The notes below the pieces were generated by a model. The model was not told the origin of the DNA. It made no database searches and saw nothing but the letters and a program-made list of their open reading frames with translations. From contig VXYT01000040.1 of NCBI GenBank assembly GCA_009845855.1, positions 24,367 to 88,366 of the forward strand: a stretch of DNA of 64,000 bases. Reading direction: 5' to 3'. Below, piece after piece: positions 5,298 to 63,100 of the stretch. This stretch comes from Candidatus Palauibacter ramosifaciens. Lineage in GTDB: Bacteria > Gemmatimonadota > Gemmatimonadetes > Palauibacterales > Palauibacteraceae. How positions within the stretch are numbered: the first letter of the stretch is position 1; the number at the start of each line of letters is the position of its first letter. A program made the position numbers and the translations under genes.

Positions 5298-5867
5298 ATG
5301 CCGCATATCGACACGGTAGCTCCCGAGGAAGCAGAGGGGCTCGTCGCCCGCGAGTACGAGAAGGCCGTCCGCCGCGCGGGGCGCGTCTTCAACGTGATCT
5401 GCATCCAGAGTCTGAACCCGCCCGTCATGCGTGCCTCGATCCGGCTCTACGAGGCGCTGATGCTGGCGCCCGGACCGCTGGGGAGGGACGTGCGGGAGAT
5501 GCTCGCGACCGTGACCTCGCGCGAACTCGACTGCTTCTACTGAACGGAGGCGCACGGAGAGGATCTCCGTCAGGCGACCGGGGACGATGACCTGGCCCGC
5601 GCGATCCGGATCGACTATCGGACGGCGGGGCTCGACGCGAAGACGCGCCGGCTGATGGACTATGCGGTGGCGATCACGCGCGAGCCGACCTCCACGGCTC
5701 GGCCGGACATCGACGGGCTGCGGGAGGTCGGCTGGACCGACGCGCAGATCCTGACCGCGACGGAGGTCGTCGGCTTCTTCAACTACTACGTGCGCATGGT
5801 CGAGGCGCTCGGTGTAGAACCGGAGCCTGAGATGGAGCGGGACCCGGCCTTGTGGCCGGATCCCTGA
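5298..5867 (+). CDS. carboxymuconolactone decarboxylase (CMD/AhpD-like) family peroxidase-related selenoprotein; in-frame TGA (5541-5543) read as Sec
   Basis: ORFs 5298-5543 and 5655-5867 are in the same frame. Together they reconstitute one ~189-aa CMD-family protein. The TGA falls at the second Cys of the family C-x-x-C-x3-H motif (here C-F-Y-U-T-E-A-H). AGGAGG RBS 8 nt upstream of the ATG; hairpin 11 nt after the TGA. Confidence 0.7.
5554..5570 (+). promoter_or_regulatory. candidate bacterial SECIS hairpin for the CMD-family selenoprotein
   Basis: ACGGAGA/TCTCCGT 7-bp stem (or 5-bp stem with GAGGAUC loop), beginning 11 nt downstream of the in-frame UGA. Confidence 0.45.
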
Positions 5868-8250: not shown

Positions 8251-9402
8251 CTAGGGAAGGTCGTCGATCCACTCGGCGATGAAGATGTTTGTGTTGCCCA
8301 GGTGGGATCCGTGCCGGTTCGATCCGAACACGAGATGACGGCCGTCCGGGCTGAACATCGGGAAGCTCTCGAACTCGTCGCTGAACGTCACCTGCTCCAG
8401 GCCCGTGCCGTCCAGGTTCACGAGGAAGAGATCGAAATTGCGGCTGCGGGGATCGCCCTCGTGCAGGTTCGAAGCGAAGATCACCTTCTCGCCGCTCGGG
8501 TGGAAGAAGGGGGCGAAGTTCGCGGCCTCGTTGTCCGTGAGACGCACCCGGTTCGAGCCGTCCACATTCATCACGTAGATGTCGAGCACGCCCGGCCGGA
8601 CGAGACCATCGGCCAGGAGCGCCTGGTAGTCCGCGAGTTCCTCTTCGCTCTCCGGGTACCTCGCCCGGTAGACGATCTTCGATCCATCCGGGGAGAAGAA
8701 GGGCCCGCCATCGTATCCGAGTTCGTTCGTTATCTGCCGGACGTCGGAGCCGTCGGGATTCATCGTGTAGATGTCCAGATCTCCGTTGCGCGTGGAGGTG
8801 AAGACGATCCGCGACCCGTCCGGGGCGAGGGTCGCCTCCGCGTCGTAGCCGGGACTCGAGAAGATCGGCTGGACGTCGGAACCGTCCGGGTTCGCCGTGT
8901 AGATGTCGAAGTCGTGGAGCGGCCACACGTACCCACGCCGCATGTCGGGCGGCGGAGGGCACTCGGGCGACACGTGATGCGTGGAACTGTACACGATCCG
9001 CGAATCGTCCGGGAAGAAGTAGGAGCACGTGGTCCGGCCGAGCCCCGTCGAAACGAGCTTGGGGTCGCCGCCCTCGACGCCGATCGTGAAGATCTGGTCG
9101 CATTCGTACTCGCCCTCGTGGCGGCGCTGGAAGATCAGCCGCTCTCCGTCCGCCGAGTAGTAGGCCTCGGCGTTCTCTCCCTCGAAGGTGAGTTGAGTCA
9201 GGCTGGCGAAGCGCCGCTCGTCCGGGAGCGGATCGCGGCTCACGGCGGCGTTCTCCGCGATATTCTCCCCGCCGTTCCCGCTGGTCGCGGCATCGGTCTC
9301 CTCTCCGGCGTTACCGGCGCAGGCCGTCGCGACGAAGGCTGTCGCGAGCGCGGCCGCGATGCAGGTCGGGGACGATACGGGTCCGAACTGTGCTGATTTC
9401 AA
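8251..9402 (-). CDS. TolB-like PD40 beta-propeller lipoprotein
   Basis: lipoprotein-type signal (…ATAFVATAC); repeated F/YSPDGSxIVF PD40 motifs. Confidence 0.75.
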   Translation of the reverse strand: MKSAQFGPVSSPTCIAAALATAFVATACAGNAGEETDAATSGNGGENIAENAAVSRDPLPDERRFASLTQLTFEGENAEAYYSADGERLIFQRRHEGEYECDQIFTIGVEGGDPKLVSTGLGRTTCSYFFPDDSRIVYSSTHHVSPECPPPPDMRRGYVWPLHDFDIYTANPDGSDVQPIFSSPGYDAEATLAPDGSRIVFTSTRNGDLDIYTMNPDGSDVRQITNELGYDGGPFFSPDGSKIVYRARYPESEEELADYQALLADGLVRPGVLDIYVMNVDGSNRVRLTDNEAANFAPFFHPSGEKVIFASNLHEGDPRSRNFDLFLVNLDGTGLEQVTFSDEFESFPMFSPDGRHLVFGSNRHGSHLGNTNIFIAEWIDDLP

Positions 9403-9611
9403 GAGAGCCTCGGTTCTGCCGATTCGATGTTCAACGGCGCGCCGGCCGCCGCAGTGTTCTGCAGGCCCGGGCGAGCCGCGGGCTCACAGGGTACGATTCA
9501 CGCGCTCGCGCGGCCAGTTCAGGAGCGTCCCGCTTTCACGGTTTCCGCGACGATACGTTCTAAGGGACGAGAACGAGCGTTGGCGAGCGGGGAAAGGCGG
9601 AGCCGGGGCGC

Positions 9612-10154
9612 ATGACCACAGGGACGGAGTCGGCGCATCGGGTGCGGAGCTGGTCGGAGCGGTACGGCCCCGAATTGCAGCGCCACGTGGCTGCGATGCT
9701 GGGTAGCGCGGATGAGGCCCGGGACATCGTGCAGGACCTGTGGGTGACGGCGCTCCGTGCCCGGCCCGAGAGGGTGGACGGCGCCAACATCCGTGCCTGG
9801 CTGTACCGCGTCGCGACGCGGCGGGCTCTCGACCACCTGTCCGCCCGCCGCCGGCGCTCGGACTTGCTCGCGGCCCACTCCGACGAACTGGAGCCGGGCC
9901 CCCTTCCCCCGGCCGACGCGGCGCTGGGTAGGCTCTCCGAAGCCGCCGCGGCGCGCGTCCGGGAGGGTGTCGCGGAACTCCCCCGGCGGCAGCGGGACGC
10001 CGTCTGGCTGCGCTGGATCGAGCAGTTGGACTACCCGACGATCGCGCGCCGGATGGATGTCTCCCCCGAGGCCGCGAGAGCCAACGTCTACCACGGGATG
10101 AAGAAGCTGCGCCGCGACCTCGCCGAGGTGTGGCGCGAGGAGGGGCCGATATGA
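9612..10154 (+). CDS. RNA polymerase ECF-type sigma-70 factor
   Basis: region 2 (DIVQDLWVTALR) and region 4 (DYPTIARRMDVSPEAARANVYHGMKKLR) signatures; 180 aa. Confidence 0.85.
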   Translation: MTTGTESAHRVRSWSERYGPELQRHVAAMLGSADEARDIVQDLWVTALRARPERVDGANIRAWLYRVATRRALDHLSARRRRSDLLAAHSDELEPGPLPPADAALGRLSEAAAARVREGVAELPRRQRDAVWLRWIEQLDYPTIARRMDVSPEAARANVYHGMKKLRRDLAEVWREEGPI

Positions 10155-10861: not shown

Positions 10862-11881
10862 TCAACCTTCTTCGGCGACGGTGAACCGCATGAGACTTCC
10901 CGGGAACATCAGCCAGGCCGTGCCGTCGTCCAGGATGCGGCTGCTCCACGCCGCCTGGCGCCGCTGCGGGTCGCGCCACAGCACGGTGGCCCGGCCGTCC
11001 TCCTCGTAGGGCAGAAATACCCCGTCCACCGGATCAATCGCCGGGACGAGCCACACCCCCCGCTCGCCGGCCCGCATTTCCTTGAACCCCGGCGCGCTGA
11101 CGCCGGGGCGGCCCGCGACGCGCCGCTCCGTCTCCGCGCGCGTGCTCTCGACCAGCCATTCGGGTACCGCGATGCGGGAGATGCGAACAATCCTGGACGG
11201 ATCGTACTCCAGCTCGATTCGCCACAGGATCGTCCGCACCCCGTCGAGAAGGATCACCTCGCCCTTCCGTCCAACCGACATCACGACATGCTGCGCGCTT
11301 ATTCGGTCGACCGGTCCAAACGCCAACTCCTCGGGAAGCGGAACTTCGTTCGGGATGTTCAGGGGCCCATCCGCCAACCCGTACGCTGCAAGCAGAAAAC
11401 CCGGCTGTGCGCTGAGCCCGATGGCGCCGAGGACATGGTCGACCCCGAATCCAACGGCGGTCGCCATCGTCGCTCCCGGAAGCCGCGCCGTCTGCGGCTC
11501 TCCGCCTCCGGAAGGAAAGTGTATGAGCGCTGCCCGCCCGGGATCGCCTACCCAGAGTGAGCCATCGGGCGCGAACTGGACGCGCCACGGGGATTCGAGG
11601 ATCTCGGGATCCCCCGGCCCCGGAGGGCCGCCCAAGGTCGCGATATGCTCCCCCGACGAGCGGAACAACTGGACCCGCCCCGCCATGCGGTCCGCAACCG
11701 CGACCGTGTCCCCGAACAGATCGAACCCGCGCGCCGACTCGATAAAGATGTCGTCCGAAAGGAGGCCTGCGGGCGGCAGCTCCTGCACCAGCTCCCTCAC
11801 CGCGACCTGCGTGCTCGAATCAACATCAAGCGAGCGGTCGGCGCCGCCATCGCCGCACGCCCAAGTCGTCAACGCCGCCAT
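10862..11881 (-). CDS. secreted/lipoprotein-like beta-propeller family protein (paralog of the 29837 gene); start uncertain
   Basis: signal-like RRRLALVAMAALTTWAC; QELP motif and overall similarity to the low-GC paralog; the only nearby ATG gives a short signal peptide. Confidence 0.5.
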   Translation of the reverse strand: MAALTTWACGDGGADRSLDVDSSTQVAVRELVQELPPAGLLSDDIFIESARGFDLFGDTVAVADRMAGRVQLFRSSGEHIATLGGPPGPGDPEILESPWRVQFAPDGSLWVGDPGRAALIHFPSGGGEPQTARLPGATMATAVGFGVDHVLGAIGLSAQPGFLLAAYGLADGPLNIPNEVPLPEELAFGPVDRISAQHVVMSVGRKGEVILLDGVRTILWRIELEYDPSRIVRISRIAVPEWLVESTRAETERRVAGRPGVSAPGFKEMRAGERGVWLVPAIDPVDGVFLPYEEDGRATVLWRDPQRRQAAWSSRILDDGTAWLMFPGSLMRFTVAEEG

Positions 11882-51956: not shown

Positions 51957-52534
51957 GCCCGGAGCAGATCGTGGAAGCCGCGTTGTTCGCGAGTCAGACG
52001 CCGCTCACCGCCCGCGAACTGGCCCGGGCCGACGACGCGCTCGATGTGCGGCGGGTCCGCGAAGCGCTCGCCGCGTTACGCGAGCACTACGACACCGACG
52101 GACGAGCCTTCCAGGTCTATCAGCTCGGGGACGGGTTCCAGATCCTCACGCGCCCGGAATTCGTGCCGTACCTCGAGCGGTTCGACTCGGTGCCGCGACC
52201 GCCGACCCTTTCCCGGGCCGCGCTCGAGACGCTGGCGATCATCGCGTACCGGCAGCCGATCGGGCGGATCGAGGTGGAAGAGATCCGGGGTGTGGCGTCC
52301 ACCTCGGTGCTGCGAACGCTCCAGGACTGGGAACTGATCGAAGTCGTGGGGCGGGGAGAGGGGCTCGGGCGGCCCCTCCTCTACGGGACCACGCCTCGTT
52401 TCCTGGATCACTTCGCCCTGCAGTCGCTGGACGATCTCCCCGCGCCGGAGGATCTGTCGGTGGCGCTCGCTCGCGTCGAACCGGAGGCGTCCGCCGACGA
52501 CGTGGCGCCGCGGGAAGAGCCCGCCGCGGACTGA
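51953..52534 (+). CDS. scpB: segregation and condensation protein B
   Basis: GTGA overlap; winged-helix ScpB motifs (LETLAIIAYRQPI...). Confidence 0.85.
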   Translation: MSPEQIVEAALFASQTPLTARELARADDALDVRRVREALAALREHYDTDGRAFQVYQLGDGFQILTRPEFVPYLERFDSVPRPPTLSRAALETLAIIAYRQPIGRIEVEEIRGVASTSVLRTLQDWELIEVVGRGEGLGRPLLYGTTPRFLDHFALQSLDDLPAPEDLSVALARVEPEASADDVAPREEPAAD

Positions 52535-52539
52535 GGCCG

Positions 52540-53280
52540 ATGCGACTGCAGAAATACCTTGCCCGGGCCGGCGTCGCTTCCCGGCGCGCGAGCGAAGCAC
52601 TCATCGCCGCCGGCCGCGTCCGCGTGAACGGCGAAGTCGTGACGAAGCTCGGCGTGACGGTGGATCCGGACGCCGAGCGCGTCGACGTGGACGGCCGCCG
52701 CGTCCGCTTGAAGCCTCTGCTCTGGTTGGCGCTCAACAAACCGCCGGGGTACGCCTGCACCCGGCACGACCCCCGCCGTCGACCGATCATCTACGATCTG
52801 CTCCCCGCCGATGTGCGCCACCTGCCTCACGTCGGCCGGCTCGATTTCATGAGCGAGGGGCTCCTTCTCCTGTCGAATGAAGGGGATGTCGTACATCGGC
52901 TCCTGCACCCCGGGACCGGCATCGAGCGCGTGTACCACGCGAGCCTCCGCGGGCCCGTGGCGGCGGAGCTTCCGGACCGGCTGCAGGCGGGCGTGGCGCT
53001 CGAAGACGGACCCGCGCGCGCCCGCCGCGCGGGCTGGATTACGCCTCCGCATGCGTCGACCCCCACCGTCGAGATCGTCCTGGCCGAAGGAAGAAATCGG
53101 GAGATCCGGCGCATGCTCGCCTCGCTCGGCGTCACGCTGCGGAGACTTCGCAGGACCTCGTTCGGGCCGGTTCGACTGGGCGCGCTCGCAGCGGGAGCGG
53201 CCCGAGAGTTGTCTCCGAAGGAGCGGGCGGCGCTCCGGCGGGCGGCGGGTCCCGCTTGCTCCCGGGCGGTTACGGAGTGA
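52540..53280 (+). CDS. rluB: rRNA pseudouridine synthase (RluB/RsuA family)
   Basis: S4 domain (MRLQKYLARAGVASRR), catalytic HVGRLD. Confidence 0.85.
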   Translation: MRLQKYLARAGVASRRASEALIAAGRVRVNGEVVTKLGVTVDPDAERVDVDGRRVRLKPLLWLALNKPPGYACTRHDPRRRPIIYDLLPADVRHLPHVGRLDFMSEGLLLLSNEGDVVHRLLHPGTGIERVYHASLRGPVAAELPDRLQAGVALEDGPARARRAGWITPPHASTPTVEIVLAEGRNREIRRMLASLGVTLRRLRRTSFGPVRLGALAAGAARELSPKERAALRRAAGPACSRAVTE

Positions 53281-53329
53281 ACATCGGGCGGCTGACAGAC
53301 CGAACATCACCGCCACAGCGAGAGAACGC

Positions 53330-54348
<1,019 letters not shown>

Positions 54349-54352
<4 letters not shown>

Positions 54353-55281
54353 GGCTGCCCGACTTTCTATGGCGCCCCCGGCGACCGGTGCCGACGGCCG
54401 ACTCCACCTCCGCGTCGAAGGAGGTGCGCCGGTTGGAGCTGAAGAGCCGAAGGTTCATGGACAACCCGGCCCTGGGCCCCTATCCGTCGCTCTTCCGCGG
54501 GCACGGCATCGAGTTCTCCGAGGTCCGCGAGTATCAGCCGGGCGACCCGTTCCAGGCGATCGACTGGAAGGTGACCGCCCGCATGCGGCGCCCCTACGTG
54601 AAGCGCTTCGTGGAGGAACGGGAGCTTGCCGTCCTACTCGTCGTCGACGTATCCGCATCGAACGAGTTCGGTACGCGGCGATCGCTGAAGCGCGATCTCG
54701 TCGCGGAGGTGGCGAGCACCCTCGCGCTCGCGGCGATGCGCGCCGGAGATCCGGTGGGCATGCTGCTCTTCAGCGACCGGATCGAGCACTACGCACGGCC
54801 GGCTCGTGGCCGCAACCGGAACCTCCGTCTGCTGCACGAACTGGTGTCCGTCCGGCCGGAGGGGAAGGGGACGGACCTCGATCTCGCTCTCGCCACGGCG
54901 GCGCGCATGCTCACCGTCCGCTCCCTCGTGTTCGTGATCTCGGACTTCGTGGGCGCCGGCGACCTGGCTCGCCCGCTGCTTGGGCTTTCCGGCCGCCACG
55001 ACGTGGTCGCGCTCGCGGTCGACGACCCCGCGGAAACGACGATTCCGGCATCGGGCTGGGTAGAGGTCGTGAATCCCGAAACGGGGGACCGCGCCGTGGT
55101 CGACCTCGGAGATGCGGCGGTTCGGCAGCGGCTCGTGGAGCGCTCGACTGCGGGGGCCCGGGCGCTGGAGCGGCTGTGCGCGCACTGCCACATCGACCTC
55201 ATGCGGCTGGGTACCGACACCCCCTACGAGTCCCGGCTCGCCGGCTTCTTCGCCGCTCGCGGCCGGCGGAGGCTCCGGTGA
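54349..55281 (+). CDS. DUF58 protein (MoxR-associated)
   Basis: GTGA overlap; GHGIEFSEVREYQPGDPFQAIDWKVTAR DUF58 signature. Confidence 0.85.
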
Positions 55282-56240
55282 GGAGGTCGCGATGGCCGGT
55301 CCGGGCGGCTCTCTGTGCGGGGTTGGGACTCGCCCCGGGTCTGGCGGCCCAGTCCGCTGTCGACCTCGAGGCGACGGTGCTGCCGGAGTCCGTGCGGGTT
55401 GGCGAGGCGTTCACCGTCCGCCTCGTCGTCGGGCAGGAGAGAGCCGGAGAGGTTCGCTTTCCCGCGCTCATCGACGGGCCGGAGTCGATCGAGCAGACGG
55501 GGCCGGTGCAGATCCGATCCGTTGACGAGGGTCGGCGCTGGGAAGCGGAGTACACGATGCGCGCCTGGCGCGCGGATACGCTCGTCATCCCGCCGGTGGA
55601 GGTGGAACTGGCGGCCGCGGGCGGCGTGGTCCGTCGGCTGCAGCCGCCCGCGGTCCCCGTCGTGAGCGTGCTGCCCGCATCCGGTGACCCGCTCGAGTTG
55701 AGGGAGGCCCGGCCCCTCCTGAGCCTGCGGGGCCTGCCCTGGTGGCCGATCCTGCTCGCCGCGGCGCTTGCCGGGCTCGCCTGGTGGACCTGGGGCCGCG
55801 GCCGCGCCGCCGCGACCGCCGCCGATGTCCCCCTCGGCCCCGGCGATCTCGCGCTTCGCGACCTCGCGCGCCTCCGCGAAGGATGGGTTCGTCAGCAGGT
55901 GAGCGGCGACCGGTTCTACGACGGCTACGAGGAGACGCTTCGGCGCTACGCGAACGTGACGCGCGGGTGGGCGCCGTCGAAGGAACTCTTCGGGCTCGGA
56001 GGTTCCGATGCGGGGCTCGTCGCCGCTCTGCGCCACTCGATCCTGGCCCGTTTCGCGCGCCTGCGGACGCAGTGGGAAGATCCGCTCGGCGATGTGGAGG
56101 TCGGCGAGGCGTTCGTGCGCGCCGACATGGCGGAGTCGCTTCCGGCCGATGAATCAGGCGAGACGGGTGCCGCCGGGGAAGGCGCCGCTGGGGATGGCGC
56201 TGGCGGGGCCGGTCCCAGCGGGATCGGAGGCGGCGCGTGA
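55278..56240 (+). CDS. membrane protein of Bat-like operon (DUF4381/BatD-like?)
   Basis: GTGA overlap; signal peptide, central TM (WWPILLAAALAGLAWW), Gly/Ala-rich acidic tail. Confidence 0.5.
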   Translation: MRRSRWPVRAALCAGLGLAPGLAAQSAVDLEATVLPESVRVGEAFTVRLVVGQERAGEVRFPALIDGPESIEQTGPVQIRSVDEGRRWEAEYTMRAWRADTLVIPPVEVELAAAGGVVRRLQPPAVPVVSVLPASGDPLELREARPLLSLRGLPWWPILLAAALAGLAWWTWGRGRAAATAADVPLGPGDLALRDLARLREGWVRQQVSGDRFYDGYEETLRRYANVTRGWAPSKELFGLGGSDAGLVAALRHSILARFARLRTQWEDPLGDVEVGEAFVRADMAESLPADESGETGAAGEGAAGDGAGGAGPSGIGGGA

Positions 56241-57229
56241 GCGAATTCGCGCTCCCCGGATGGCCGTTCCTCCTTCTTCTGGTCCTGCTGCCGCTTGGCT
56301 GGGCCCTCATGGGCTCGGGGAGGATCCGTCTCCCGTATCCGGACATCGCCCGCCTTGCGAGCTCTCGCGGCCGGGGTCGGGGGCGGTTCTGGTGGTGGTT
56401 TCCCGCCGCCCTTCGCTCCCTCGCGCTCGCGCTCGTCATCATCACGCTCGTCAACCCCGTGCGGGTCTGGGAGCGCGTCGAATCGGAGCGTGAGGGCGTG
56501 GCGATCATGCTGGCGGTCGATATATCGAGTTCGATGCTGGCGGAGGACTTTCGTCCGGATAACCGCATCGAGGTCGCCAAGCGGGAGGTCATCCGCTTCG
56601 TGGAGGGACGGGAGTCGGACTGGATCGGTCTCGTCGCCTTCGCGGGGGAGGCCCTCACGATGGTCCCCGGGACCCTGGACCACGCCGTGGTGGAGAGTGC
56701 CGTGGAGCGGCTCGAGGCCGGGCAGCTTCGGGATGGAACGGCCATCGGCGTGGCGCTGGCCACGGCGGCGAACCGGCTCCGCGACCTGGAGCCCGAATCC
56801 CGAATCGTCGTCCTGCTCACCGATGGAGACAACAACAGCGGCGGCATCTCGCCGGAGGAGGCGACGGCCGCCGCCGCCTCGCTCGGCATCCGCGTCTACA
56901 CGATCGGCGTCGGCCGCGACGGGGTCGCCCCCGTGCCCGTGGCCCGGACCGCCTTCGGATACCAGTACGCCAATATCCGCGTCCATGTGAACGACGAACT
57001 CCTCGACCGCATGGCGACCCGCACCGGGGGGCTCTATTTCCGCGCCACCGATCCCGAGGGGCTGACGCGGATCTACGAGCGGATCAACGAACTCGAGACC
57101 ACGCCGATCAAGGAGGTGCGGACGGAAGAGCGGGTCGGGATGCGGCGGGAGCTTCTCATCGCGGCGCTCGCCCTCGTGCTGCTCGAACTTCTCGTGGCGG
57201 CGACGCGCTCCCGCCGGGTCTGGGTCTGA
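56237..57229 (+). CDS. vWA domain membrane protein (BatA-like)
   Basis: N- and C-terminal TMs; MIDAS DISSSM...TDGDNN. Confidence 0.85.
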   Translation: MSEFALPGWPFLLLLVLLPLGWALMGSGRIRLPYPDIARLASSRGRGRGRFWWWFPAALRSLALALVIITLVNPVRVWERVESEREGVAIMLAVDISSSMLAEDFRPDNRIEVAKREVIRFVEGRESDWIGLVAFAGEALTMVPGTLDHAVVESAVERLEAGQLRDGTAIGVALATAANRLRDLEPESRIVVLLTDGDNNSGGISPEEATAAAASLGIRVYTIGVGRDGVAPVPVARTAFGYQYANIRVHVNDELLDRMATRTGGLYFRATDPEGLTRIYERINELETTPIKEVRTEERVGMRRELLIAALALVLLELLVAATRSRRVWV

Positions 57230-57231
57230 CC

Positions 57232-58221
57232 GTGGCCCCCCTCCCGATCGCCCTCCTGCTCGGAGCCGTGGCCGTTGGGCTCAGGCTGCTCGCGTCGCGA
57301 CGGTCGGGCGCGGACCGCGAGAAACTCGCCGACAGCTCGCTGCTCGAGCGCTATGTGCGGCTGCCGGCGCACGCCCTTCCGCCCGTTCGCCTGGCGCTGC
57401 TCGGCGCGGGCGTCGTCGCGATCGCGCTCGCCTCCGGTTCGGGCGGGACGGAGGCACGGCGTCTCGATGAAGGCGGGGCGGAAACGATCCTGGTGCTGGA
57501 CGCGTCGAACTCGATGCTGGCGGGCGACGTCCAGCCGAGCCGGCTGGAGGTGCAGCGGCAGTTGGCCGCCCGTCTCGCGACGCAGACGCAGGGTCGGATG
57601 GGCGTCGTCTACTTCGCGGGCCGCGCGTACGTGCTGTCGCCGTTGACGACGGACATGAGCGCGATCGAGATGCTGGCGGAAGGCGTGCGGCCCGCCGCAG
57701 TGGGGCTGGGCGGATCCTCGCTCGCCTCCGGCCTCACGCAGGCGATCGATCTCCTCGCGGGCGGAGAGGAAGGCGCGCGCAAGTCGATCGTCGTCTTCTC
57801 CGATGGCGAGGAAACCGCCGGGGCGCCCCTCGGGGAGGCGATCGGGAGGGCCCGGGATGCGGGGATCGTCATCCATTCGGTGGGCATCGGAACCGAACTC
57901 GGAGGACAGATCCCCCTGACGCGGGAGGCGTCGCTGGACCCGACGATGGCCGCGCGACGCCGGGGCGGGGCTTCGGTGCTTCAGGGACCGGACGGCAGCC
58001 CGGTCATCACCCGGTTGAACGCCGCGCCGCTGCGGCAGATGTCTCTCGGCACGAGCGGGCACTACGTTGATGGTTCGGACGGCACCGACGCGATCGAGCG
58101 GGAACTGGCACAGGGCGGCCGGGAACCCCTTACATCGACCGACGACGTGGCCGTAGCGGCGTTGCTTCTGCTCGCCTTCGTCAGCCTCTGGGGAGAAGGG
58201 TTCCTGTTGCCACGTGGTTGA
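57232..58221 (+). CDS. vWA domain membrane protein (BatB-like)
   Basis: LDASNSM...SDGEETAG vWA motifs; TM flanks. Confidence 0.8.
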   Translation: MAPLPIALLLGAVAVGLRLLASRRSGADREKLADSSLLERYVRLPAHALPPVRLALLGAGVVAIALASGSGGTEARRLDEGGAETILVLDASNSMLAGDVQPSRLEVQRQLAARLATQTQGRMGVVYFAGRAYVLSPLTTDMSAIEMLAEGVRPAAVGLGGSSLASGLTQAIDLLAGGEEGARKSIVVFSDGEETAGAPLGEAIGRARDAGIVIHSVGIGTELGGQIPLTREASLDPTMAARRRGGASVLQGPDGSPVITRLNAAPLRQMSLGTSGHYVDGSDGTDAIERELAQGGREPLTSTDDVAVAALLLLAFVSLWGEGFLLPRG

Positions 58222-58924
58222 GTCGACGAGGAAGTGCGCGATCTTCGGGCTGGTGGCCGCGGCCGCCTCGCTTGCGGCGTTCGCCGGGGGTGAGCCGCAG
58301 GACCCCTCGGAGGAGGCGGCCGGTCAGGCCGGGGCCGCCGACCGGCAGGCGTCCGAATCCGAGACCGTCGCGCGCTACCGGGAACGAGCCGCTTCCTCCG
58401 ATCGGCCGATCGACCATTACAACTACGGGACCGCTCTGCTCCATGACGGGCAGGTGGGCGAGGCGCAGCCCCCCCTGGAACTTTCCATCGGCAGCGAGCG
58501 GGGCGAGGTGCGTGAGAGCGCCTTCTACAACCTCGGACTCAGCACGGCCCTCGACGGCCGCTTCGCTCAGAGCGACCCTTCCGCGCGGCGGGCTGCCCTC
58601 CAGTCGGCGCGCGAAGCCTTTCGCGAAGTCCTCCGCCGCCGCGTGGACGATGAGGATGCGCGCTGGAACCTCGAACTCGTCGAGCGCTGGCTCGAGGAGG
58701 AAGGGGAGAGCGGCGGTGACGAACAGCAGGGCGGGCAAGGACAGTCTCCGCAGGGGGCCGGCGCCGGGGCCGCGGCGGCCGCCGGCTCCGGCGAGATGGA
58801 GATGCTGTCGCCCGAACAGGCGGCGGCGCTTCTCGAACAGGCGGGCGACGCGGAGGCGGCGATCCGCGACCGCGTCATGGGCCGCAACCGTTTCCAGGAT
58901 CCGGTCGTGGAGCGGAACTGGTGA
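58214..58924 (+). CDS. TPR repeat protein (BatC-like)
   Basis: TPR-like helices (YNYGTALLHDGQ..., FYNLGLSTAL...). Confidence 0.65.
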   Translation: MVESTRKCAIFGLVAAAASLAAFAGGEPQDPSEEAAGQAGAADRQASESETVARYRERAASSDRPIDHYNYGTALLHDGQVGEAQPPLELSIGSERGEVRESAFYNLGLSTALDGRFAQSDPSARRAALQSAREAFREVLRRRVDDEDARWNLELVERWLEEEGESGGDEQQGGQGQSPQGAGAGAAAAAGSGEMEMLSPEQAAALLEQAGDAEAAIRDRVMGRNRFQDPVVERNW

Positions 58925-59982
58925 ACTCGCCTTCCGCCGAAGCGGCCCGCCTGACCCAGTACTCGCACGGGGCCGGCTGAGCGTGCAAGCTCGGCCCGGA
59001 GGATCTGGGCCGCATCCTGCAGCATGTTCCGCACTTTCCGGACGACCGGCTCCTCGTGGGACTCGAGGGCCCGGACGACGCCGCCGTGTATTTGCTCGAC
59101 GAGGGAGAGGCCATCGTCGCGAGCCTCGACTTCTTCACGCCGCTCGTCGACGATCCGGCCGACTTCGGAGCCATCGCGGCCGCGAACGCGCTCGGAGATC
59201 TGTACGCGATGCGGGCCCGCCCCCTGTTCGCGCTCAATATCCTGGCGATTCCCGCGGGGACCCTCTCGGATGAGACGGTCGGCGCGATCCTCCGCGGCGC
59301 GGGGGAAGTGTGTCGCGAGGCCGGCATCGCCGTGGCCGGGGGACACTCGATCGACGACGCGGAGCCGAAGTTCGGACTGGTGGCCATCGGGCTCGGCGAT
59401 CCCGACCGCCTGTGGAGAAAGGGCGGAGCGCGGCCGGGAGATGCGCTCGTGCTGGGCAAGGCGCTCGGAACAGGTGTCATCACGACCGGGCTCAAGCGCG
59501 GCGTGGCGGACCCGGCCGACCTCCTCGTCGCCGTCGATTCCATGCGGCAGCTCAACCGCGAGGCGGCGGCCGTCCTTGCCGGCTTCGACGTTCATGCCGC
59601 AACCGACGTCACGGGCTTCGGACTCCTGGGGCACCTGCTCGAGATGTGCCGCGCGTCGGACGCGAGCGCCCGGCTCCGGGCTTCGGCGCCCAGGCTTCTC
59701 CCCGGAGCGCTGCGCCTCGCCGGCGAGGGGTGCGTGCCGGGCGGCACGACGCGGAACCGGGACGCCTACGCGTCGCACGTGCAGTGGGCTGACGCCGTCC
59801 CCGACGACCTGCGCAACCTGATCCTGGACCCGCAGACTTCCGGCGGACTGTTGGCGGCCGTCCCTGCGGACGAGGCGTCGGCGGCCTCGTCCGCGCTCGC
59901 CGCGGCGGGCTATGCGGCCGCCGTGATCGGAGAGGTCATCGAGCGTGACGATCCGGCGGTCGGGATCGAGGTGTCGCCCTGA
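58921..59982 (+). CDS. selD: selenide, water dikinase (selenophosphate synthetase), itself a selenoprotein: in-frame TGA 58978-58980 read as Sec
   Basis: GTG start overlapping the BatC stop (GTGA). N-terminus MNSPSAEAARLTQYSHGAGUACKLGPEDL aligns with the SelD LTQYSHGAGCGCK motif, with TGA at the catalytic Cys/Sec position. The downstream 308 aa form a canonical AIR-synthase-like SelD body. Confidence 0.85.
58992..59012 (+). promoter_or_regulatory. candidate bacterial SECIS hairpin for selD
   Basis: CGGCCC/GGGCCG 6-bp stem with 9-nt loop GGAGGAUCU, starting 12 nt after the UGA. Confidence 0.45.
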
Positions 59983-60057
59983 TCGCGCGGCAGTCCCGCG
60001 GTCGTCTCCGGGGCGTTGGTGCCGAGCGCCGCCGCGCGTACGTTTCACGCTCCGTCC

Positions 60058-60131
60058 GGGCCCGTAGCTCAGCTGGTTAGAGCAGGGGACTCATAATCCC
60101 AAGGTCGCAGGTTCGAATCCTGCCGGGCCCA
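60058..60131 (+). tRNA. tRNA with anticodon CAU; acceptor-stem C4-G69/C5-G68 favours tRNA-Ile2 (lysidine) over elongator tRNA-Met
   Basis: cloverleaf: acceptor GGGCCCG/CGGGCCC, D-arm GCTC-AGCTGGTTA-GAGC, anticodon loop CUCAUAA, T-arm GCAGG-TTCGAAT-CCTGC; no encoded CCA. Confidence 0.85.
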
Positions 60132-60189
60132 TCCTCAGGATCCCCGAGTCCCGACGCCTGTATCCACCATCGAGAGCAAGGAGTCGTCC

Positions 60190-63100
60190 ATGCGGCCATG
60201 CCGGGTTCCGGTCTCCCGACGCGGGTCCCCCTTCCTGTTCGCCGTGCTCGCGCTGTGTTGCGCCGCGGCCTCGGACGCGGCCGCGCAGGCTCAGGCGACG
60301 ACCGGCGTCATCCGCGGGGTCGTCCGCGATCCGGTGGGGGCGCCGGTGGCCGAGGCCGCCGTCGTCATCGAGCATCGCGCGACCGGCTTCGCGACGACGG
60401 TCGTGACGGGCTCCAACGGGGCGTTCGTGCGCACGCTCCTGCCGCTGGGCGTCTATGACGTCACGGCCCGGGCGCTGGGGCAGTTCGGCGACGAGCGCAC
60501 CGAAGGGCTCGTCCTCCGCGTGGGAGAGGTCCTCGATCTCGTACTCGAGTTCAAGCCCGTCGCGGTGTCCGAGATCACCGTGACGGCCGACCGGACGCCG
60601 CTCGTCGACACCGGGGACCCGTCGAGTTCGCATCGGCTCGCCGAAGAGGTCGTCGACAACCTGCCCAACGACGGCCGCAACTTCCTCGACTACACGCTCC
60701 TCACGCCGGGCGTGTCCGTGTCGCAGGGTCCGGACGGCGAGGTCCTCAACATCGGGGGACAGCGGGGGATCTTCAACAACGTCTCCGTGGACGGAGCCGA
60801 CTTCAACAACCCCTTCTTCGGCGAGCAGCGCGGCGGCCAGCGTCCCGCCTTCACCTTCAGCCAGGACGCCATCGAAGAGATCGTCGTCGTGAGCCAGGGG
60901 GCGTCGGCGGAGTTCGGGCGCTCCGCGGGAGGCTTCGTGAACATCATCACGAAGTCGGGCACGAACGAGTTCACGGGCTCTGCGCACTACTTCGGCCAGT
61001 GGGATGCGATCTCCACCCCGTACCCAAGCGAGCGCGGGGGCGGAAAGCCCGAGTTCGGGCGGGGCCAGTTCGGCTTCACGCTCGGCGGCCCGATCGTGCG
61101 CGACAGGGCGTTTTTCTTCGTGGCCTACGACCAGCAGCAAGCGAGCGAGACGAAGCAGTTCACGCGCAACGTCGCGAACCGATCCGAACTCGAGAAGCTC
61201 GAGAACTTCCTCCAGACGCAGTGGCCCGGCCGGTTCGATGCCGAGTTCGGCCCGATCCGCCGCACCGACGACAACCGGGCGCTCGTGGCGAAGCTCGATT
61301 TCAACCTCAGCGACCGTCACCAGGCGTCTCTCAAGTACAACTACACCTGGTCCCAGCAGGTGAACGGTACATTCGACGTGGACTCCTGGGGTCTCAGCGC
61401 CAACGGTCTCGAGGAGGATTTCTCCCACGCGATCAACGCGAGCCTGAGGTCGCAGCTTTCCAACACCGTCTCCAACGAGTTTCGCGTCCAGTACGCGCGA
61501 GAGGATCGGCCCCGGGGATACGATGGACCCCTTATTCCGGGCTCCGCCCCGCCTCCGCAGCCGGCCTTCGGCACGGTCGGCGGCCGCCCGTTCCCGGACA
61601 TCGCGATGGACTTTGCGGACGGGTTCCGCATCGGGATGCCCTTCTTCCTCCCCATCGACCCGGCCTACGACCACCGGATCCAGCTCGTCGACAACCTCTC
61701 CTTCCTGGCGGGGGATCACCTGCTCAAGGTGGGCGTCGAATACAATCGGACGGGGGTCGGCCAGCAGTTCATCGGCTTCGCCAACGGCCTCTACAAGTTC
61801 TCCTCCGTCGACGGATTCATGAACTTCGTCACCCAGGGGAACCGATACGTCACCTGTTCCGACGGTTCCGACGGCGCGGAGGGCGTCTGTCCTCCGGGAA
61901 CCGCGATCACCGGCCCGGTCCTCCTCTACCTGCAGGCCCTCACGCTGGGAGATACTCCCGCCGGGCAGCTCGGACTGCAGGACTTCTCGATGCACGAACT
62001 CGGGCTTTTCGTTCAGGACACCTGGCGCCCGCGCGACAACCTGACTCTGAACCTCGGCGTGCGCTGGGAAGGGTCGTGGCACCCGGGGATGTTCATCGAG
62101 CCCGAGGACACCTTCTACGGGCCATGGATCGGGACGGCGGGGTTTCCGTCGGATGGGACGATTCCGGACGACCTCGACAACTTCCAGCCGCGCTTCGGCC
62201 TGGCCTGGGATCCCCGGGACGACGGGCGCACGCTCGTCCGCGTGAACGCGGGGTCCTACTTCTCGCGCATCCCGATGCTGGTGTTCGCGCAGCACCGCAC
62301 GACGAACGGGGCATTCCAGGGAACGCAGTTCGCGGCCAGCGACGCCACCTTCCTTCCGCCGCCTCCGCAGATCGGAGGATTCCTGACGCCGCCACCGCCG
62401 GGCACGCCGCCCTTCCAGCCCGGCGTGAACATCGCGGACCGCAACCTCGAACTGCCGCGGACGTGGTCGTTCAACGTTGCCGCAGAGCACGCGCTGAGCG
62501 GGAGCACCGCGGTGGAGCTTTCTCTCCAGCACGCCCGCACGGACAACCTGTTCCGCTTCGTGGACCGCAACGCAGCGGAACTCGGGGCGCCCTTCGCGGA
62601 CGGGGCCAGCGGACTGGGCACGCTCACCGTGACCGAGAGCAGCGCGCGCTCCCGCTACAACGCCGTCACCCTCGGATTGCGCGGGGACGGCGCGCTCGAT
62701 GGGAGACTGGCTTTCGAGGCGAACTACACGCTGAGCTTCGATCGGTCGGACGACGATAACGAACGTGATCCGTTCAACTTCTTCTATGCGACCGCAACCG
62801 ATTTCGAGCCCGAGTACAACTGGTCGATCCGGGACCGGCGGCACCAGATGACCGGCTTCATGCTCTTCGATCTCGGGCGCGGCGTCGTCCTCAACCACAT
62901 CTTCCGGTATCTCTCCGCGTCGCCGATGTCGGAGAGTTGCGGCCCGAGCGAGGCGAACCCTCTCGCCGCCCCGGCGGGCCAGCGCGCGGGCGCTCCGGCG
63001 GACCGCGTATGCGCCGATGGCTCGGTCCTCAAGCGCAACACGCTCCGGCGGGAGAACGACTTCTTCACCTGGGACCTGCGACTCTCGAAGGCCTTCGACA

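Follow-up and report, generated by a model that had tools for sequence, protein, structure and literature searches.

The E. coli fdhF-type selenocysteine insertion sequence (SECIS), described in the work of Böck and Engelberg-Kulka, is a hairpin located inside the coding region, with a GGUC loop and a bulged U. Bat (Bacteroides aerotolerance) operons of the MoxR-DUF58-vWA type are known in Bacteroides, Leptospira and others. SelD and FdhA are the most widespread selenoproteins of bacteria (PMC1794560), and SelD is often mis-annotated (PMC13326102). Here, we have analysed a selD gene that follows directly on a Bat-like operon in a stretch of 64,000 nucleotides from the sponge-associated Gemmatimonadota lineage Candidatus Palauibacter (Ca. 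Palauibacter ramosifaciens, assembly GCA_009845855.1, contig VXYT01000040.1, positions 24,367 to 88,366), which is referred to as the window and numbered from its first letter. We hold it to be highly probable that this is a normal selD encoding a selenocysteine (Sec)-containing SelD, that its in-frame UGA is recoded under the direction of a SECIS, and that a recent 47-nt deletion joined it to the Bat-like operon. The features on which this proposal is built are as follows.

58921-59982, plus strand: full-length selD coding sequence of 353 codons with Sec predicted at codon 20, as defined by NCBIfam and Pfam matches and by alignment with E. coli SelD.
58921-58924, plus strand: GTGA, in which the GTG start of selD (58921-58923) lies on the TGA stop (58922-58924) of the 236-aa gene that precedes it; the same four letters form the junction of the 47-nt deletion.
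58909-58912, plus strand: GGAG, a Shine-Dalgarno (SD)-like sequence 8 nt 5' of the GTG start and within codons of the 236-aa gene, read from the sequence.
58978-58980, plus strand: predicted Sec-encoding UGA at the position of Cys17 in E. coli SelD, with TGA and TGC alternating in orthologues.
58979-59029, plus strand: SECIS-type structure with a lower helix (58979-58986 paired with 59022-59029), an apical helix (58992-59000 paired with 59004-59012) and a GGA loop (59001-59003).
59056-59058, plus strand: internal GTG codon for Val46, wrongly taken as the start of the public 308-aa open reading frame (ORF); it aligns within the conserved LLVG motif of E. coli SelD.

Translation of 58921-59982 gives VNSPSAEAARLTQYSHGAG*ACKLGPEDL..., in which the only internal stop is that at 58978-58980, and after the preceding stop in this frame, GTG 58921 is the one candidate start that comes before the TGA. 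For scoring with hidden Markov models (HMMs), U was written as C, both here and for the second candidate selenoprotein described below. The 353-residue product matched NF002098 (378 bits, cutoff 299) and TIGR00476 (376 bits, cutoff 125) over residues 6-351, a range that takes in the N-terminal extension missing from the public 308-aa ORF, and Pfam identified the AIRS (PF00586, 85 bits) and AIRS_C (PF02769, 80 bits) domains. The closest solved structure is that of E. coli SelD (PDB: 3U0O; E = 4.7e-80), with query residues 7-341 aligned to residues 4-336 of the chain. Query RLTQYSHGAGCACK stands opposite E. coli RLTQYSHGAGCGCK, which places the UGA at the position of Cys17. The glycine-rich loop LTQYSHGAG-U-ACK is aligned with E. 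coli LTQYSHGAGCGCK (residues 7-20), and both the catalytic Cys/Sec and the catalytic Lys are present. We regard the predicted 353-codon product as a bona fide SelD, and ATP-dependent selenophosphate synthesis as its predicted activity.

An ORF of 308 aa starting at Val46 would be without the catalytic loop. Since gene callers stop at the UGA and take an internal GTG as the start, the public 308-aa SelD is a truncation. That the annotated ORF from 59056 is a truncated SelD had been proposed in a first-pass annotation made from the letters of the window alone, and both the HMM coverage and the 3U0O alignment bear this out. The same annotation had extended the gene upstream to GTG 58921 to recover the N-terminus, with TGA 58978-58980 at the catalytic Cys/Sec position, and had noted that the GTG overlaps the upstream stop as GTGA; translation and alignment agree with the former, and the latter is found at 58921-58924. 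Its central claim, that selD is itself a selenoprotein gene, gains support from the Cys17 alignment and from the conserved in-frame TGA and the hairpin evidence that follow.

That the UGA is a codon rather than a stop is supported by its conservation. We compared loci of relatives, numbered from L001, the closest of which are Ca. Palauibacter genomes from sponges. The Sec codon is TGA in 22/22 Gemmatimonadota relatives (L001-L022), whose SelD proteins are 62-92% identical. The peptide flanking the TGA is almost invariant on both sides among them, and an ATG or GTG start is found 57 nt 5' of the TGA in 21 of the 22 and 54 nt 5' of it in L019. Taking all distinct sequences together, the codon is TGA in 44 (L001-L032 and others) and TGC in 18. 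TGA is also found in Marinimicrobia, Planctomycetota, Deltaproteobacteria and some Bacillales, and the remaining orthologues, the more distant ones included, have TGC. An alternation of Cys and Sec within conserved flanks is what normally marks a gene for a selenoprotein, and sequencing error, a pseudogene and a true stop are therefore ruled out. We predict with confidence that UGA 58978-58980 is decoded as selenocysteine and that selD is an ordinary Sec-containing SelD gene. An alternative genetic code was also considered and rejected, as TGA serves as the stop of MoxR, of the 236-aa gene and of further genes in the window. In one relative (L020, 10001-11200), the selD frame is open for 400 codons compared with ~352, perhaps through loss of the stop codon or an extension of the C-terminus.

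The RNA that follows the UGA has the makings of a recoding signal. RNAfold folds 58992-59012 (CGGCCCGGAGGATCTGGGCCG) into a 9-bp stem closed by a GGA triloop, which starts 11 nt after the UGA and sits atop the lower helix. The first-pass annotation had described a 6-bp stem over the same positions; the stem is present, but is extended to 9 bp with a triloop. Its further suggestion of a SECIS-type hairpin after the UGA is supported by folding, conservation and resampling. When the same peptide was re-encoded with synonymous codons drawn from the codon usage of this genome, the folding energy was -17.7 ± 3.0 kcal/mol on average compared with -26.3 kcal/mol for the real sequence, and only 0.4% of the resampled sequences were as stable as the real one (p = 0.004). 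Synonymous diversity, calculated for 23 selD sequences in 10-codon windows, reaches its whole-gene minimum in the windows starting at codons 18-29, where it is 0.22-0.29 compared with a mean of 0.45 across the 353-codon gene. Alignment A1, with nine distinct relatives, has the apical helix paired in 100% of cells, compared with 23-39% for all of the shifted registers. A compensatory change from C-G to U-A is found in the apical helix of L022, where it also changes two amino acids, and there is one one-sided change, from G-U to A-U. Moreover, the region from +8 to +44 folds with a median of -12.8 kcal/mol in TGA-type sequences versus -8.75 kcal/mol in TGC-type sequences (Mann-Whitney p = 2.6e-4), a comparison uncorrected for GC content or phylogeny. 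A SECIS element after the selD UGA is thus supported by conservation at synonymous sites, by compensatory changes and by codon resampling, and we predict that this hairpin directs the recoding.

A related hairpin is found in sister clades (L012-L021, L023-L025 and L031-L034, including Marinimicrobia), in the form GGUCC-GGA/UGA-GGACC at +12 to +30 after the TGA. Its loop is located 3 nt 5' of that of the window, in the same KLGPEDL codons, and the stem of the window is lengthened to 9 bp. The selD hairpin is therefore conserved in place and in kind, not in exact register. In a Gemmatimonadales locus (L033:126), the codon is TGC and the hairpin AGCUCGG-CAGUU-CCGAGCU of the TGA-type relatives L026-L030 is kept, which suggests that Sec was recently converted to Cys and that the hairpin is a relic SECIS.

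A second gene of the same kind is present in the window.

5298-5867, plus strand: AhpD-like peroxidase-related enzyme of 189 aa with the motif DCFY-U-TEAH; UGA at 5541-5543 and hairpin at 5554-5570.

This gene came from a scan for in-frame TGA codons based on the GC content of third codon positions (GC3), the output of which was otherwise mostly antisense-frame noise of high-GC DNA. Gene callers would give just an 81-aa fragment of it. The product matches TIGR01926 (125.7 bits, cutoff 81.8) over residues 5-178, across the TGA, and contains a CMD domain according to Pfam. Its hairpin, ACGGAGA-GGA-UCUCCGU, has an apical 8-mer, GAGGAUCU, with the apex GA-GGA-UC, that recurs identically in the selD hairpin; ...G(P)EDL... 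is encoded 3' of the UGA in the two genes alike. Metagenome relatives (L088-L091, L093 and L094-L117) keep the TGA from 92% down to 31% identity, the Sec codon is TGC in L119, and the hairpin is kept in L091 through a compensatory change from G-C to C-G. Since two unrelated genes have UGA at a catalytic Cys position together with the same hairpin apex, it is very likely that the Palauibacter lineage decodes Sec. Our searches of the literature on Palauibacterales and Gemmatimonadota for selenium use found no mention of it.

Upstream of selD lies the Bat-like operon.

53330-54352, plus strand: MoxR-type AAA+ ATPase (AAA_3, 217 bits; AAA_lid_2).
54349-55281, plus strand: DUF58 protein (DUF58, 219 bits), starting at GTG 54349, in a GTGA overlap with MoxR, or at ATG 54457.
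55278-56240, plus strand: 320-aa gene with weak resemblance to BatD/DUF4381 (BatD, 18 bits, below cutoff), preceding the BatA-like gene.
56237-57229, plus strand: vWA protein, BatA-like (VWA; BatA N-terminal Pfam model, 21.6 bits, cutoff 25.9; BatA_Lepto, 171 bits, cutoff 380).
57232-58221, plus strand: vWA protein, BatB-like (VWA and VWA_2; BatB_Lepto, 71 bits, cutoff 350).
58214-58924, plus strand: 236-aa gene in the BatC position (BatC_Lepto, 17 bits, cutoff 175), TPR-like via homologues only.

From MoxR to selD, successive genes overlap by 4, 4, 4, -2 (a 2-nt gap), 8 and 4 nt. At least two of these junctions are GTG starts with a 4-nt overlap, and a third is possible at 54349 (junctions 54349-54352, 55278-55281, 56237-56240 and 58214-58221); the public gene call starts DUF58 at ATG 54457, leaving a gap of 104 nt after MoxR. 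All Bat-specific models score below their cutoffs in the operon proteins. There is no clear BatD or BatE, the sole trace being the sub-cutoff 18-bit BatD match of the 320-aa gene, and no gene lies between the 236-aa gene and selD. Pfam gave no match for the 236-aa protein even at E≤1; the link to TPR proteins comes from its homologues, 40-68% identical, which have TPR domains in Pfam or TPR in their names. The gene order moxR-DUF58-vWA-vWA-TPR given in the first-pass annotation is correct for MoxR, DUF58 and the two vWA genes, but it omitted the 320-aa gene, and the TPR assignment comes only through homologues and weak matches.

How selD came to be linked to this operon is suggested by its neighbourhood in relatives. 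A tblastn search of the window proteins against all loci found the order ScpA-ScpB-RluB-MoxR-...-236-aa gene-SelD in L001-L014, L016, L018 and L020-L022, and no Bat genes between RluB and selD in L015, L017 and L019; the Bat-selD linkage was found in no other phylum. Directly 5' of selD in L012, L013, L015, L017 and L021 is a divergent pcm gene (~9165-9975, minus strand), encoding protein-L-isoaspartate O-methyltransferase (PF01135; E = 1e-54 in L013 and 3e-57 in L015, the two copies tested), and selD must therefore form its own transcription unit in those five loci. In Palauibacter, pcm is missing from the position upstream of selD. Most Palauibacter genomes have a spacer of 41-54 nt before selD, which starts with ATG. 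These spacers are divergent except for a single conserved block, TAGCTT(C), the end of which is 5-8 nt 5' of the ATG. Boxes of the same type (TAGCTT, TAGGTT, TAAGAT and TAGGAT) are located 12-15 nt 5' of four ATG starts in the window.

20695, 33897, 36353 and 43034, minus strand: gene starts with a TAGCTT-type box and no SD sequence, most other window genes being of the GGAG type.

These starts suggest that the genome of the window has a mixture of leaderless and SD-led mRNAs, and TAGCTT is probably the -10 element for a leaderless selD mRNA. Just 5' of the TAGCTT box, the spacer of L005 (9958-10000) has a hairpin, GCGAG-ACGC-CTCGC, without a T-run. This hairpin is also found in L002, L014, L007 and L008, having the form GCGGG in the last two with pairing kept via G-U, and is lost in the window.

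In an alignment across the junction (A2), the window and L003, which is Ca. Palauibacter irciniicola, are without exactly 47 nt that are present in the other relatives. The missing letters begin with the TAG stop of the 236-aa gene, take in the whole spacer with its TAGCTT box, and end with the A of the selD ATG. What remains, ...AAC TGG/TGA ACT... (the slash marks the join), provides a TGA stop and a GTG start, both of them new, and neither protein is changed. Consistent with this, a blastn alignment of the window with L005 breaks exactly at 58922, and that with L003 runs through. A spacer is kept in all outgroups, which makes the deletion derived. DNA identity between the window and L003 is 91.8%, the dN/dS of selD between them is 0.24, and the TGA and the hairpin are kept in both, so that selD must have stayed functional after the deletion. 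Judging from these comparisons, the linkage of selD to the Bat-like operon is real but derived and specific to one lineage, namely the window species and one sister species. The unusual Bat-selD linkage pointed out in the first-pass annotation therefore exists, but it reflects a derived 47-nt deletion in two species and not a conserved functional coupling.

We propose the following sequence of events. In the common ancestor of the window species and Ca. Palauibacter irciniicola, the 47-nt deletion removed the promoter-like spacer of selD. Thereafter, selD would be transcribed by read-through from the Bat-like operon and translated by termination-reinitiation at the GTGA, helped by the GGAG 8 nt upstream, which may act as a functional SD sequence. 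Translation of SelD would start at GTG 58921, and UGA 58978-58980 would be recoded to Sec in the catalytic N-terminal loop (SHGAG-U-ACK), directed by the bacterial-type SECIS hairpin that begins 11 nt after it. A 4-nt GTGA overlap together with an upstream SD-like GGAG is the arrangement expected, by sequence, of translationally coupled cistrons, and read-through with reinitiation appears to be the most economical reading of the fused junction.

Several observations weigh against this proposal. The promoter role of TAGCTT, the co-transcription and the reinitiation are steps that we infer, and selD may have an internal promoter within the operon. A scan of 52500-60400 with sigma-70 and terminator consensus found no promoter, and terminators at chance level only. 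As the sigma-70 scan was empty throughout the operon, the promoters of this organism are poorly recognised. For the hairpin, comparison with dinucleotide shuffles gave a z of only -1.7, which is modestly unusual and is expected in GC-rich DNA, and covariation in the apical helix comes from few independent changes. No SECIS family came out of Rfam for 58850-59150, either at gathering scores or at E≤10, the only matches being chance ones. Rfam has no general bacterial SECIS model, and bacterial SECIS elements are too diverse for a single one (PMC12013277). Lastly, selA, selB and tRNA-Sec were found neither in the 64-kb window nor in the flanks of the Gemmatimonadota relatives. The SelB GTPase motif, searched for in all fetched loci, occurred only adjoining selD in other phyla and never in Gemmatimonadota loci or the window, and ARAGORN found tRNA-Sec in non-Gemmatimonadota loci only.

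Poor recognition of promoters leaves some room for the idea that selD was not captured by the operon at all. It could have kept a promoter of its own, hitherto unrecognised, in the 3' end of the 236-aa gene, with GTGA reflecting no more than compact packing. The promoter consensus of the phylum is not established, the sigma-70 scan was empty even before obvious operon heads, and many window genes have SD-led starts without a recognisable -10 box. However, the conserved TAGCTT box is gone from the window, where the last ~220 nt before the GTG lack TAnnnT elements and even the dinucleotide TA, and all other junctions of the operon overlap or nearly so, as expected of a single transcript. We consider a retained promoter unlikely.

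It is conceivable that the coupling is adaptive, with the supply of selenophosphate and Sec being controlled together with a MoxR/vWA module for oxidative stress or aerotolerance in sponge symbionts. The order of Bat-like operon and selD is kept across Palauibacter and related genomes, the fused state is kept in two species-level lineages (~92% DNA identity) with selD under purifying selection, and the other selenoprotein gene of the window encodes a peroxidase-related enzyme. The linkage is, however, absent outside this clade; in the outgroups, either a divergent pcm separates the operon from selD or the Bat genes are missing, and most Palauibacter genomes keep the spacer with its promoter-like box. 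As a neutral microdeletion accounts for the data, and our literature searches found no functional link between Bat proteins and selenium, an adaptive coupling seems to us improbable, and nothing suggests a functional relationship of Bat proteins with selenium. A narrower form of the idea, which we find more doubtful still, is that the 47-nt deletion was selected and not neutral, and that by taking away a leaderless promoter of selD it tied the gene, as the last, translationally coupled cistron, to the stress or oxygen signal of the Bat operon in this sponge-symbiont lineage. If this were true, the supply of selenoproteins, including the AhpD-like peroxidase-related enzyme, would follow that signal, and the enigmatic Bat operon would gain a testable physiological partner.

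Far less tenable is the suggestion that the TGA is a true stop, with the first 45 codons non-coding and the gene either encoding a 308-aa protein from GTG 59056 or being a pseudogene. It is in line with the public gene calls, which contain the 308-aa ORF, and with the lack of Sec machinery genes in the window. Against it, the 308-aa product would be without the Sec/Cys-x-x-Lys loop (aligned with E. coli residues 4-45), the flanking peptide and the position of the start are maintained at 62-92% identity as described above, orthologues swap TGA with TGC only, and the second UGA gene of the window has a matching hairpin; we regard a true stop as highly improbable. That the 47-nt gap is an artefact of assembly or binning, as might be feared of a metagenome-assembled genome (MAG), was rejected as having a negligible chance of being true, since the identical junction recurs in four ENA scaffolds derived from separate samples, in a Logan assembly and in the NCBI MAG (GCA_009838765.1, contig VXQX01000017.1), six independent assemblies in all, and also in a different species, L003, at 91.8% DNA identity.

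On the other side of selD, a tRNA gene follows.

60058-60131, plus strand: tRNA-Met(CAT), 75 nt 3' of the selD stop, its position kept in Palauibacter relatives.

A tRNA-Met(CAT) on the same strand is found directly downstream of selD in every close Palauibacter relative (L001-L010 and L014, ~11094-11265), ~35-135 nt after the stop.

Preferring the proposal of a Sec-containing SelD joined to the operon by deletion, we would like to point out what it changes. The annotation is corrected, in that the public 308-aa "SelD" of Palauibacter genomes would be a 353-residue selenoprotein. Together, selD and the AhpD-like CFYUT gene indicate the use of selenocysteine by a Gemmatimonadota lineage that is widespread, marine and associated with sponges. 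The junction also offers a clean and datable example of operon growth, in which a single 47-nt deletion drops a spacer with a putative promoter and makes a new stop and a new start codon. Our knowledge of the mechanism of Sec decoding and of Bat operons is unchanged. Sec-containing SelD and its mis-annotation are already well known; new here are one more lineage with a mis-annotated Sec-encoding selD and one small evolutionary event, the operon-capturing deletion.

Comparison with described systems places each part of the locus. The protein resembles the Cys17 form of E. coli SelD (3U0O) in its near full-length alignment, its RLTQYSHGAG-C/U-xCK motif and its N- and C-terminal AIRS domains, and differs in having Sec, as predicted, where E. 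coli has Cys17. We know of no linkage of E. coli selD to a MoxR/vWA operon. With the Sec-containing SelD of other bacteria (such as Haemophilus influenzae, Geobacter and Clostridia; listed in PMC1794560 and BSepDB), the gene shares a UGA at the catalytic position of the N-terminal glycine-rich loop, a SECIS hairpin directly downstream within the K-L-G-P-x-D-L codons, and a coding sequence that is routinely cut short by annotators; the difference is the host, a sponge-associated lineage of Gemmatimonadota. Similarly, the SelD SECIS of Acetomicrobium in BSepDB (UGAGCAGCCAAAUUGGGUCCGGCGGACCU, PMC13326102) forms a GGGUCC-GGC-GGACCU hairpin in the KLGPxDL codons.

The second gene has exactly the C-F-Y-U-T motif of NF041238 (AhpD_rel_CFYUT (seleno)protein). 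Unlike that family, whose model has 357 positions, its product is a single domain of 189 aa, and its score of 42.5 bits (cutoff 175) places it outside this equivalog. Compared with the fdhF-type SECIS, the selD hairpin has the same minimal upper stem-loop 11 nt after the UGA, within the coding sequence and with G residues in the apical loop, but has a GGA triloop, with A-U and G-C as closing pairs, in place of a GGUC loop with a bulged U. As in known Bat operons, the genes upstream encode a MoxR ATPase, a DUF58 protein, a membrane protein of small size, two vWA proteins (with sub-cutoff similarity to the BatA N-terminus) and a protein in the BatC position, with overlapping stops and starts; in contrast to those operons, there is no clear BatD or BatE, and selD is appended as the last cistron, an arrangement seen in this sub-lineage only.

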